Positions 54,835-57,317 of a stretch of 64,000 bases of DNA are shown piece after piece. A model generated the notes under the pieces. The model made no database searches, had not been told where the DNA came from, and worked only from the letters and a program-made list of their open reading frames with translations. Made by a program: the position numbers and the translations under genes. The stretch covers positions 8,564 to 72,563 of the IMG/VR virus record IMGVR_UViG_3300045003_000166; one strand, written 5' to 3'. This DNA is from a virus. Within the stretch, counting starts at the first letter, position 1; each line of letters begins with the position of its first letter.

Positions 54835-55557
54835 ATGCTGATCGAGAATCCCTTCGCCCCGCTCGGCTTCCTGGGCGACGGCACCGCGGTCTACCCCTTG
54901 GCCGGCGCCGAGCCGCAGGAGGGCGAACTCGAGATCGAACCCGAAGACGAGGGCGTCGAGACCGGCGACGAGCCGGAGGACGGCGCCGACGCAGAGCCGG
55001 GTGGCGACGACGAGAAGGAGAAGCTGCGCGAGGCGCTGCGCAAGGCGAACGGCGAGGCCCGCAAGTACCGGCTGCAGGTGCGCGAGATGCAGGCGAAAGC
55101 AGCCGAGGCCGCGGTCGAGGAGGTCGAGGAGGAGGCGGCGCAGACCGGCGCTGAGGTCACTCCCGCCCAACTCAAGCGCGCGGTGGACAAGGCTAAGGCC
55201 GACGCCACGAAGGCGGCCGAGATCAAGTACCGCAAGGTCGCCGTCAACGCCGCCGCCCAGTCCGAGTTCGTCAAGGCGGGCGCGAAGGCCGCGAACGTGG
55301 CCAAGCTGGTGCGCCTTCTCGACGTGGACGACGTGGACATCGACGCCGAGACCGGCGAGGTGACCGGCGGCCTGGCCGAGCAGATCGACGCCCTCAAGGA
55401 CGAGTTCCCGGAGCTGTTCACCCCGGCGGAGGCTGCGAAGCCGGCCAAGCGCGCGCCCGTCAAGCGCGCCGCGGCGGCGCCCCGCCAGGAGGCGGAGCCT
55501 CAGGCCCTCAGTTCGGCCGAGAAGATCGCACAGCAGCTGCTCGGCACCGGCCGCTGA
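54835..55557 (+). CDS. capsid scaffolding protein
   Basis: Acidic N-terminus, ALRKANGEARKYR coiled coil, LKDEFPELF; GGAGG RBS. Confidence 0.88.
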   Translation: MLIENPFAPLGFLGDGTAVYPLAGAEPQEGELEIEPEDEGVETGDEPEDGADAEPGGDDEKEKLREALRKANGEARKYRLQVREMQAKAAEAAVEEVEEEAAQTGAEVTPAQLKRAVDKAKADATKAAEIKYRKVAVNAAAQSEFVKAGAKAANVAKLVRLLDVDDVDIDAETGEVTGGLAEQIDALKDEFPELFTPAEAAKPAKRAPVKRAAAAPRQEAEPQALSSAEKIAQQLLGTGR

Positions 55558-55559
55558 CC

Positions 55560-55982
55560 GTGGCGCTGCGCATCAGCCGGTCGATGCGCGACCGGATCGT
55601 CACCGACTGCGTGTTGCGCCTGCCCCTGGAGGGCTGCGGCGTGGTGTCAGCGAAGGGCAGGTTCATCCCGCTGCCCAATGCCGCCAAGTCGCCCGAGCGC
55701 TTCGCCTTCGACCCGGCGCTGCAACTGCGCGTGTGGCAGGAGCTGGACGCCGTGGGCGACCGGGTGGCGATCGTCTACCACTCCCACCCGGACAGCGCTG
55801 CTCGCCCGTCGGCGACAGATGTCCTGCACGCCCGGCTCCATCCGGGTGTGCACCATGTCATCGTCGGCCCGGTCGCCCGTGAGCCGAGGGAGTTCACCTC
55901 CTGGCAGGTGTCGGATCGTCAGACACTGGCGCGCGAGGACGTCGAGATCCTCGACGCCCCGCTGCCCGAGGGCGTGTTCTGA
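55560..55982 (+). CDS. JAB/MPN (M67) metalloprotease
   Basis: PLEGCG; IVYHSHPDSAARPSATD = E…HxH-x7-S-x2-D JAMM motif. Confidence 0.9.
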   Translation: MALRISRSMRDRIVTDCVLRLPLEGCGVVSAKGRFIPLPNAAKSPERFAFDPALQLRVWQELDAVGDRVAIVYHSHPDSAARPSATDVLHARLHPGVHHVIVGPVAREPREFTSWQVSDRQTLAREDVEILDAPLPEGVF

Positions 55983-56282
55983 GGTGGCGTTCCTCGGCCC
56001 GTTCGGCGCCCTGCAGAGTGCGGTTCGGGCGCAGGACGCCCAGATCCGGGCCGGGCAGGCGCAACTGGACCGGTTGCGGCGCGCTGCCGCGGACGACGAT
56101 CTGACGACTGTGGCGAGCACTGGAATCCTGCACCGCCTAATCGCCCGCGTCGCCGGAAAGACACGGTAGTTCTGGTCTTGACAATCGTGCCGTGATACCG
56201 TCGAAGCGGCACGGACAGGTATCCGGCGCCGCGCTGGGTCCGCGATGGGCCGACAACCCCATCGGAACCTCACGCGAAGGCC

Positions 56283-57317
56283 ATGCCCGTGTCCCGCGCC
56301 CTTAGCGCGGCGCGCCTGCCGCGCCCTGCTCTCCTCGGCTTCACCTCCTCCGGTCCCGTCTACGCGATCGCGGGCGCGGCCCGCGACGTCATGGACGCGT
56401 GGATCCCCGAGGAGTTCGACTCGCAGGTCATCATGCGGGTCAACCAGATCTCCGGCGTGGAAGCGCTCGGATCCCCGGTCCCGATGAACACCGAGACCCG
56501 GTCCGTCCCGCGCTCCGCCGGCATCGGCGTCAACCTGGTCGCCAAGGGCGGCACCTACCAGGAAGACACCACCACCAACGACGCGGTCATCCTGACCGCG
56601 CAGAAGTTCGGCATGGCGGTCCGCATCGCGGAAGAGGATATCGACGACGCGATCGCCGACGTCATCGCCACCAAGCAGAAGGACTGGGCGACCAGCTACG
56701 GCAAGGCGTTCGACAACGCCTGCCTGGCCGTGTCCGCCGCGCCCGGCCCGGGCGTGCCGTTCACCTCGGTCTACTACGCCCTGACCCAGAATGACTCGGC
56801 GACCGGGTACAACGCGAACACCAACCTGGTCCAGACCGGTTCGGGCGGCACCACCTACAGCACGCTGTCGACGGCCCTGTCGAAGGTGGAGCAGGGCAAC
56901 TACTTCGACATCTCCGAGATGATCTGCATCGCGCACCCGACCTACCGCAACCTGTTGCGCGGCATCAAGGACAACAACGGCCGGCCGATCTTCCAGGAGT
57001 CGAGCGCCGGTTTCCCGGGCGGCGGCACCGCCTCGTCCCCGGACACGATCTTCGGCATCCAGATCCACTGGTCGCTCGGCGCCCGCGGGTCCTCCACGGT
57101 CACGTCGGCGCCCACCGGCAACGGCCTGCTGTTCTTCATCAACCGCAACTACCTGATCGTCGGCCGCCGCTCCGGGCCCGAGTCCGTGTTCATCGACGGG
57201 CGCAACGGCCTGGCGGCCCTCACCGACGAGTCGATCCTCAAGATGCGCGCACGGCGCGCGTTCGCGCTCGGCCACGAGAACGCGGCCTCCTGCCACGAGG
57301 ACACCACCGGCGTCTAA
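56283..57317 (+). CDS. major capsid protein (HK97 fold)
   Basis: WIPEE, LTAQKFG, LRGIKDNNGRPIF, TIFGIQI, ILKMRARRAF. Confidence 0.92.
   Translation: MPVSRALSAARLPRPALLGFTSSGPVYAIAGAARDVMDAWIPEEFDSQVIMRVNQISGVEALGSPVPMNTETRSVPRSAGIGVNLVAKGGTYQEDTTTNDAVILTAQKFGMAVRIAEEDIDDAIADVIATKQKDWATSYGKAFDNACLAVSAAPGPGVPFTSVYYALTQNDSATGYNANTNLVQTGSGGTTYSTLSTALSKVEQGNYFDISEMICIAHPTYRNLLRGIKDNNGRPIFQESSAGFPGGGTASSPDTIFGIQIHWSLGARGSSTVTSAPTGNGLLFFINRNYLIVGRRSGPESVFIDGRNGLAALTDESILKMRARRAFALGHENAASCHEDTTGV

Follow-up and report, generated by a model that had tools for sequence, protein, structure and literature searches.

We analyzed a 64,000-nucleotide stretch of DNA from a soil actinophage (hereafter the window, by which we mean the whole stretch; bases 8564-72563 of the 72,563-base IMG/VR virus record IMGVR_UViG_3300045003_000166, whose completeness CheckV puts at 94%) and found that its scaffolding protein and its major capsid protein start with the same kind of N-terminal leader, and that a gene for a JAB metalloprotease lies between the genes for these two proteins. 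We propose that the leaders are propeptides that mimic the tail of a ubiquitin-like protein (Ubl) and are cut by a JAB of the Mec type, encoded by the phage itself in this genome and probably supplied by the host in others. We infer that cleavage occurs at all, that the JAB is its agent, and that a host JAB substitutes elsewhere. We give this reading a probability of about 0.5, and no higher, because phage JABs act like mobile accessory genes, the independent contrasts are few, and the support from predicted folds may be memory on the part of the model. The features at issue are the following:

54835..55557, + strand: scaffolding protein (PF06810, 1.2e-13), with GGAGG 7 nucleotides (nt) upstream of its ATG
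54835..54909, + strand: scaffold leader, residues 1-25, ending ...AVYPLAGA and followed by an acidic stretch; conserved in relatives
55560..55982, + strand: JAB/MPN+ (JAMM) metalloprotease of the Mec type, 140 amino acids (PF14464, 66.3 bits)
56283..57317, + strand: HK97-fold major capsid protein (PF05065, 2.3e-14; TIGR01554)
56283..56378, + strand: capsid leader, residues 1-32, ending ...PVYAIAGA and followed by ARD; conserved in 61 leader-bearing capsids

The scaffold open reading frame (ORF) begins MLIENPFAPLGFLGDGTAVYPLAGA|EPQ and the capsid ORF begins MPVSRALSAARLPRPALLGFTSSGPVYAIAGA|ARD, where the bar marks the end of the leader; base 56378 is the final base of capsid codon 32. A sequence-only reading of this DNA had described both leaders, with their coordinates, and the JAMM motif of the protease, all of which were correct on recheck. 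The motif that it saw in the two proteins proved to be widely kept: the capsid leader is in frame in 18/18 IMG/VR relatives, whose capsids are 76-88% identical to that of the window, and the scaffold leader is present in all 17 relatives whose scaffold N-terminus is on the contig. The motif is also confined to these two places. In six-frame translations of five whole genomes of ~75 kb, a regular expression for the leader finds two loci per genome, the scaffold and capsid N-termini, and none elsewhere; likewise, among 3.75 million residues of six-frame ORFs, a leader profile scores 15 bits or more only at capsid or scaffold N-termini.

The residues around the presumed cut site follow a narrow pattern in the 61 leader-bearing capsids (56-86% identical overall). 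Counting back from the site, P8 is Pro in 54 of them, P7 is Ile or Val in 61/61, P2 is Gly in 61/61, and P1 is Gly (44), Ala (14), or Ser (3); on the other side, P1' is Ala in 55 and Ser in 6, and P2' is Arg in 52 and Glu in 9. Within the same capsid leaders, G19, G24, and G31 are invariant or nearly so. The 44 distinct scaffold leaders show the pattern of the capsid leaders, followed by an acidic run. Leader length ranges from 25 to 45 residues; in the cultured phages Yara, Rooney, and Dryad, both proteins have a longer form of it. Taken together, these alignments support the view that the leader is a conserved, separable module ending in G-[GAS].

Homologues that lack the leader reveal where this module ends. 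By length, the 120 best capsid homologues form two classes, ~69 with the leader and ~51 without it (counted from the listing), and the leaderless capsids begin M-ARNT[YF]EAWIPEE, i.e. at P1' of the leader-bearing ones. Streptomyces phage Zuko has no leader on either protein; the two start with MARNTFEDW... and MADDDNQ..., at the matching boundary. Removal of the leader after G-[GAS] would thus yield the N-terminus of the leaderless relatives, which is the strongest argument for cleavage that the sequences offer. Given the sharp P1' boundary, the invariant Gly at P2, and the small residue at P1, the site resembles a cleavage site more than a docking motif. In the capsid protein of the window, the PF05065 match begins at residue 41 and the TIGR01554 match begins at profile position 116, which we take to be the start of the mature HK97 domain.

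A double-glycine leader of the type cut by C39 peptidases and a site for signal peptidase were considered and set aside: neither a C39-like gene nor a hydrophobic core was seen, and some leaders lack a small residue at P3. Separately, several capsid database entries (P0064, P0090, P0079, P0028) appear start-miscalled, being 5 residues too short, extended above the leaderless start, or cut within the leader, so that automatic annotation of this N-terminus is inconsistent.

The protease gene starts 2 nt past the scaffold stop codon, on the same strand and upstream of the capsid gene. Bearing out the earlier identification of a JAMM protease gene at this position, the product matches Prok-JAB (PF14464) well above threshold (66.3 bits, with a cut-off of 25), over profile positions 2-112 of 114. 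The JAMM residues E24, H74-S75-H76, S84, and D87 are present, and the regular expression E...H-x-H-x7-S-x2-D matches; in an alignment of 82 rows, H74, H76, and D87 never vary, and at least 90% of the rows keep E24 and S84. Judged by its motif, the enzyme is supported as catalytically intact. An exhaustive homologue search with the JAB gave 1980 matches at E <= 0.001. A peptide-pattern scan of viral contigs for JAB had given no match, since its patterns were too specific; profile searches later found JABs.

Likeness to a host JAB supports assigning the JAB of the window to the Mec type. It is 41% identical over 106 residues to the host JAB of Streptomyces sp. N35, and the stretch common to the two includes R-F-I-P-x-x-N-A-A-x-S-P, which overlaps the residues predicted to bind the leader (JAB 42 and 45-50; see below). 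With the NCBIfam desampylase equivalog NF041370 it scores 48.2 bits, below the cut-off of 130, and its PHROG matches are the 'tail protein' families phrog_5556 and phrog_30. It has no cysO or cysM neighbours, its flanking genes being those for the scaffold and the capsid, and no Ubl, E1-like, or defence-related partner gene adjoins any of the phage JAB copies that we examined.

Host genomes point to what the leader may imitate. Mec+ cleaves CysO-cysteine after the tail of CysO, a sulfur-carrier Ubl of actinobacteria. A high-scoring Mec-type JAB is found in 5/5 actinobacterial host genomes that hold related prophages, and in four of the five a CysO-like ORF ending ...LPAVAGG adjoins the host JAB gene (L161:2085-2411, plus one each at loci L162, L163, and L165); host JABs with such neighbours include those of Actinomadura, Pseudonocardia, and S. 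capoamus. In 3/4 of these CysO-like ORFs, two residues follow the GG (RR, MR, and MR), which argues that the host carriers themselves need C-terminal trimming. The tail LPAVAGG-x-R fits the commonest leader residues at P5-P1 (A, I/V, A, G, G) and at P2' (R). The leader as a whole is predicted to fold as a beta-hairpin of ~30 residues, not as a Ubl or beta-grasp domain. At most, then, its sequence makes it a tail mimic, not a Ubl.

Structure predictions are consistent with recognition of the leader by the JAB. In an AlphaFold model of the capsid protein (predicted template modeling score 0.73), the leader forms a two-strand beta-hairpin at residues 17-27, and residues 30-51, which hold the presumed cut site, form a low-confidence linker; in this model, the site appears to lie in a flexible, exposed linker. 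The best Foldseek match of the model, by a small margin, is the SaPI1 capsid 8vd4_B, which we take to be built of the capsid protein of phage 80alpha. We also predicted the complex of the JAB with capsid residues 1-60, supplying an 82-row alignment for the JAB and a 61-row alignment for the capsid. This complex scored 0.83, in contrast to 0.01 for the best of three controls; the 0.83 mark is reached by 58/80 solved complexes and by 2/110 mismatched pairs. The runs share at least 58% of contacts, with a partner pLDDT (predicted local distance difference test) of at least 50. The confident interface joins JAB residues 24, 42, 45-50, 52, 55-56, 59-60, 74-79, and 84-87 to capsid residues 13-35, with leader residues 28-31 running along JAB 48-50 and residues 31-35 lying at the catalytic residues. 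The prediction places the G-A|A cut site of the leader in the JAB active site and so supports binding.

Our proposal for how these parts would work together is as follows. The scaffold and the capsid protein would each start with a short propeptide in which a beta-hairpin leads into an exposed tail of the form P-[IV]-x-x-h-A-G-[GAS] | A, and this tail would imitate the C-terminal tail of CysO (...LPAVAGG). The phage JAB would be akin to, though diverged from, the Mec-type JAB that works with CysO in the host. It would bind the leader tail as an added beta-strand in its Ubl-tail groove and, as a zinc metalloprotease, hydrolyze the peptide bond after G-[GA], releasing a capsid N-terminus, ARD..., in the same register as that of the leaderless homologues. 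Where a relative carries no JAB gene, the trimming would fall to the Mec-type JAB of its host, in parallel with staphylococcal phage 80alpha and the host protease Prp. We are more tentative, at a little short of even odds, about the broadest form of this proposal, in which widespread actinophages (of Streptomyces, Pseudonocardia, Actinomadura, and uncultured soil hosts) would counterfeit the Gly-Gly tail of CysO on their scaffolds, and in many cases on their capsids too, and a JAB, either borrowed from the host or repeatedly captured, would mature their heads.

The sequence-only reading had seen no ClpP or S78 prohead protease, and none has come to light. Peptidase_S78, CLP_protease, and Peptidase_S49 have no match in the whole 72.5-kb record (the S77/T4 gp21 family was not separately searched), and of the 35 Pfam families found in 75 ORFs of the window, the first 25 include JAB and no other family of peptidases. 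The MuF-like protein, with its H-x-N-C-R-C motif, was considered as an alternative protease and rejected; it is present both with and without leaders and is therefore non-discriminating.

Among known systems, the precedent of phage 80alpha is the best fit to the pattern. The available portions of the report on that phage (PMC5744158) describe a capsid protein (gp47) and a scaffold (gp46) whose N-termini have a motif in common with ribosomal protein L27 and are trimmed by the host protease Prp, which processes L27 too. As in the window, then, capsid and scaffold share a motif at their N-termini, which in 80alpha copies the processed end of a host protein, and a portal, an SPP1-gp7/MuF-like protein, a scaffold, and a capsid protein are laid out with no prohead protease (same portions of PMC5744158). 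These portions also state that the scaffold leader of 80alpha is essential for assembly and that its cleavage is dispensable. The two phages differ in the enzyme and its site: 80alpha uses the cysteine protease Prp (MEROPS C108), a site F|A, a leader of 13-14 residues, and L27 as the host model, whereas the candidate in the window is a zinc JAB, encoded by the phage, with a site G-[GAS]|A and a look-alike of the CysO tail. In the excerpt available of a second report (PMC9405229), phage Cp-1 has an enzyme of the Prp clan that removes a ~40-residue extension from its capsid protein, and thus, like the window, a phage-encoded relative of a host processing protease. Unlike the JAB, the Cp-1 protease belongs to another clan and has another cut site.

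Bacterial and archaeal JAMM enzymes have been described, in the accessible parts of two papers (PMC8832034, PMC4443979), that cut alpha-peptide bonds after a Ubl tail, namely those of MoaD-MoaE and SAMP1-MoaE. The JAB of the window has the fold family and the JAMM motif of the enzymes in the pairs Mec+/CysO (Mycobacterium), HvJAMM1/SAMP1, and DRJAMM/MoaD-MoaE, which act on alpha-peptide or isopeptide bonds after GG; unlike them, it would have as substrates the N-terminal leaders of structural proteins and not a beta-grasp Ubl. Another JAB domain within a phage morphogenesis module is that of lambda gpK (JAB + NlpC/P60), which has been proposed to link with the Ubl-containing gpI in tail-tip assembly. 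Unlike the gene in the window, that of gpK lies in the tail module, its JAB is fused to another domain, and there is no shared scaffold/capsid leader. As with classical prohead proteases and the capsid-targeting leaders of T4, the product of a head-module gene would cut more than one head protein at a motif that they share. In contrast to HK97 gp4 (S78), lambda gpC (S49), and the ClpP-like enzymes, which have no homology in the record, the candidate here is a deubiquitinase-type metalloprotease, and JABs of this type are not universal among relatives with the same leaders. Finally, adenovirus, African swine fever virus, and poxvirus have Ulp1-like cysteine proteases that process the precursors of structural proteins at GG|X or AG|X; by analogy only, the window would likewise have its virions matured by an enzyme of a Ubl-deconjugase family acting after Gly-Gly.

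The trimming of head-protein propeptides by a host-type protease is thus already known. What would be new is the enzyme class, the mimicry of a Ubl tail, and the mix of host- and phage-encoded enzymes. To our knowledge, every prohead protease described so far is either a serine enzyme (S78, S77, S49, ClpP-like) or the cysteine protease Prp (80alpha, Cp-1). Literature searches for a JAB/JAMM head-maturation protease and for mass spectrometry of Streptomyces phage capsids found nothing relevant; the papers found on actinophage capsids and scaffolds were, in the portions available, structural and did not address processing.

The distribution of JAB genes associates them with the capsid leader. 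We searched for PF14464 in the whole records behind 51 related loci, scored out of 218 viral-contig relatives, 80 of which were retrieved; record G043, which has no anchor motif, was counted as leaderless. A JAB is present in 15/26 records with the capsid leader and in 0/25 without it, and for records at least 70% complete the counts are 9/15 and 0/15 (Fisher p = 7e-4, not corrected for kinship). At least four lineages (the window group and those of loci L119, L065, and L096) have the gene between scaffold and capsid, and L061 has it upstream of the portal. On the capsid tree, JAB-positive records are spread over both leader-bearing clades, and the leader label needs ~4 changes, at least two of which are forced by starred branches. 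Co-occurrence of leader and JAB, which had been put forward as a check, holds in one direction, in that JABs are found only with the capsid leader, and fails in the other, in that 11 leader-bearing records have none.

Several observations weigh against our proposal, beginning with these 11 of 26 records. Among them are G004 (100% complete, with terminal repeats), G005 (97%), G014 (90%), and two cultured phages with complete genomes, Yara and Rooney. A recheck of G004 and G005 with our own JAB profile at full sensitivity and with the JAMM regular expression found no JAB, and of the 28 Pfam families found in 75 ORFs of G004, the first 25 include no peptidase. At least 18 records, most of them Streptomyces proviruses, lack a JAB and carry the leader on the scaffold alone, a count that is a lower bound since diverged scaffold leaders (those of Yara and L119) score below the profile threshold. 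Given the JAB-less leader-bearers, a phage JAB cannot be a requirement for head maturation across this group, and the prophages with scaffold leaders likewise tell against the earlier inference as it stood.

The JAB gene is distant from the head genes in G003, G007, G008, G016/18/19, G039, and Dryad, where it sits among small unknown genes and in some cases on the opposite strand. The JAB of G003 is 35% identical to that of the window, though the capsids are ~80% identical, and phage JABs scatter on a quick, poorly resolved tree (53/88 inner branches open), from which acquisitions cannot be counted. Such diverse and scattered JABs fit a mobile accessory gene. The scaffold-capsid gap, 0.1 kb in most relatives, reaches 4.7 kb in L119 and 7.2 kb in L096, and the inserts at this junction (L119:3178-6686; L096:651-7869, which includes a TROVE/Ro60-like gene; L065:5678-7713) consist mostly of unknown genes. 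The closest relatives have a 176-codon gene between scaffold and JAB (L036:15078-15608 in G001, also in L003 and L005); the G001 copy has no Pfam match, and by eye it may resemble a permuted papain/NlpC-like enzyme. Because the junction is an insertion hot spot that takes unrelated genes, the position of the JAB alone proves little.

Other points on the same side concern the strength of individual arguments. With ~4 changes of the leader on the tree, few independent contrasts underlie the association of leader and JAB. The likeness of the leader to CysO is limited to ~6 residues: nine leader peptides gave no match to ThiS/MoaD (PF02597) in Pfam at E <= 10, and the leader profile scores neither host CysO nor any other host ORF in the examined loci. 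(One leader peptide matched Amidase_6 in the Pfam search, at chance level, and this candidate was dropped.) Complexes of JAMM enzymes with ubiquitin have already been solved, and the score of our predicted complex may partly be the model's memory of solved JAMM-ubiquitin-tail complexes. And given that cleavage is dispensable in 80alpha, as stated in the available text of PMC5744158, a leader common to the two proteins does not imply that maturation depends on its removal. The original idea of a JAB acting on Ubl-mimic propeptides thus survives in part. The separable leader, its CysO-like tail, the intact Mec-type JAB, the predicted docking, and the lack of a conventional prohead protease speak for it; the leader is predicted to be a hairpin with no Ubl fold, and other phage JABs lie far from the head genes. 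For the alternative raised in the same reading, a JAB that takes host Ubl tags off virion proteins, the results speak neither way.

The distribution could also mean that the JAB is a mobile accessory gene, apart from head assembly, that landed in the scaffold-capsid hot spot, and that the leaders are assembly motifs handled otherwise. Such a JAB might strip phage or host proteins of host Ubl tags, such as those attached by defences of the CBASS (cyclic-oligonucleotide-based antiphage signaling system) Cap2 type, the Bil type, or a similar type, or it might be a Mec-like auxiliary enzyme. An accessory gene would account for the patchy presence of the JAB even among near-identical capsids (G003 with it, G004 without), for its variable position, often among small unknown genes, and its divergent lineages; it would suit a junction that also takes unrelated inserts (the TROVE/Ro60-like gene in L096, the 176-amino-acid gene in G001) and genomes that carry other accessory or counter-defence-type genes (Tad2-like, Alt-like ADP-ribosyltransferase). 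Yet an accessory gene of this kind is found only in capsid-leader genomes (15/26 vs 0/25), its product is predicted to take the leader's G-A|A into its catalytic site (0.83 vs 0.01), and no Ubl, E1-like, or defence partner adjoins the phage copies examined; our literature search returned general papers on Ubls and no description of such a phage JAB. On balance we consider this explanation unlikely.

Doubtful as well, and to our minds improbable, is that the leaders stay uncleaved, as a shared hairpin that docks both proteins on a common partner or chaperone, or are cut by a host enzyme alone, so that the phage JAB is irrelevant or redundant. Against this, the crisp P1' boundary of the leader, its invariant Gly at P2, and its small P1 look like a cut site, and the modeled site lies in a flexible, exposed linker that the phage JAB is predicted to bind. 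In its favour, the leader is much commoner than phage JAB genes, and the complete, JAB-less genome G004 shows no peptidase among the first 25 of its 28 listed Pfam families. A Mec-type JAB in 5/5 actinobacterial host genomes tested would allow for host-only cutting, and 80alpha, in the available portions of PMC5744158, provides a scaffold leader that is essential for assembly with a cleavage that is not.

It is very improbable that the capsid leader is untranslated, with the protein starting at M37 (ATG 56391) and the upstream likeness being non-coding conservation: although the ATG at 56283 lies just 2 nt from GAAGG and leaderless homologues show that the protein works without a leader, the GTG at 56289, the other start candidate, is better spaced to GAAGG, no ribosome-binding site precedes ATG 56391, the leader is conserved as in-frame protein with invariant glycines in capsids that are 56-86% identical, and a good ribosome-binding site precedes the scaffold start, where the motif recurs.

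If our proposal of leader cleavage by a Mec-type JAB is true, it would describe the first head-maturation protease of the JAMM class, and thus a new catalytic class for that role. It would add a second, independent case of a phage that copies the processed end of a host protein for trimming by a host-type protease, and, among bacterial viruses, a parallel to the GG|X maturation cuts that Ubl-protease relatives make in adenoviruses, asfarviruses, and poxviruses. It would give a testable job to many unexplained 'M67 metallopeptidase' genes of actinophages, and it would bring out a conserved ~30-residue leader, now overlooked or given a wrong start in annotation, in hundreds of scaffold and capsid sequences. 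It would also tie bacterial ubiquitin-like machinery to virion assembly, beyond defence. Cultured Streptomyces phages differ in the relevant features: Dryad has the leader and a JAB, Yara and Rooney have the leader and no JAB, and Zuko has neither.

The rest of the head module, on the plus strand, runs in the order portal, 71-codon gene, MuF-like protein with an intein, scaffold, Prok-JAB, and HK97-fold capsid. Its remaining features are the following:

50755..52431, + strand: portal protein, SPP1 gp6-like (PF05133, 4.7e-08; phrog_104, 1.1e-61)
52869..54779, + strand: MuF-like minor head protein, interrupted by an intein (phrog_15127 'head protein', 1.2e-31)
55984..56169, + strand: 61-codon ORF after the JAB gene, probably not a gene; no homologue in 20 loci

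The intein of the MuF-like protein matches Intein_splicing and the NCBIfam models for the N- and C-terminal parts of inteins. It is inserted within the conserved H-x-N-C|R-C motif of the protein, which is intact in gp9 of Yara. Within the intein, the third-position G+C of the plus frame drops from ~0.9 to ~0.65-0.74, and a 364-codon ORF runs antisense to it (53673-54767, - strand), with weak helix-turn-helix and MTES_1575 restriction-endonuclease-like matches; either strand may be the coding one there, and the opposite strand may encode a homing endonuclease.

The gap between the JAB and capsid genes (55984-56282) is 300 bp in the window and less than 100 bp in the closest relatives. The 61-codon ORF within it (55984-56169) has no NCBIfam match and no tblastn match in 20 loci, those of 18 IMG/VR relatives plus Yara and Zuko. 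A sigma-70-like promoter had been suspected by eye at ~56178; a promoter scan of the gap found no such site.

In relatives, a pair of genes for Alt-like ADP-ribosyltransferases sits between the portal and MuF-like genes, where the window has none; in record G004 these are two paralogous genes (PF03496, phrog_802) at L024:10154-11524 and L024:11661-13754. The G+C content is ~68% throughout the window, which also encodes a Ro60 vWA/TROVE protein, a tyrosine integrase, a sigma-70-like factor, and a protein resembling phosphoadenosine phosphosulfate (PAPS) reductase, together with a GntR/UTRA regulator and a family A DNA polymerase.

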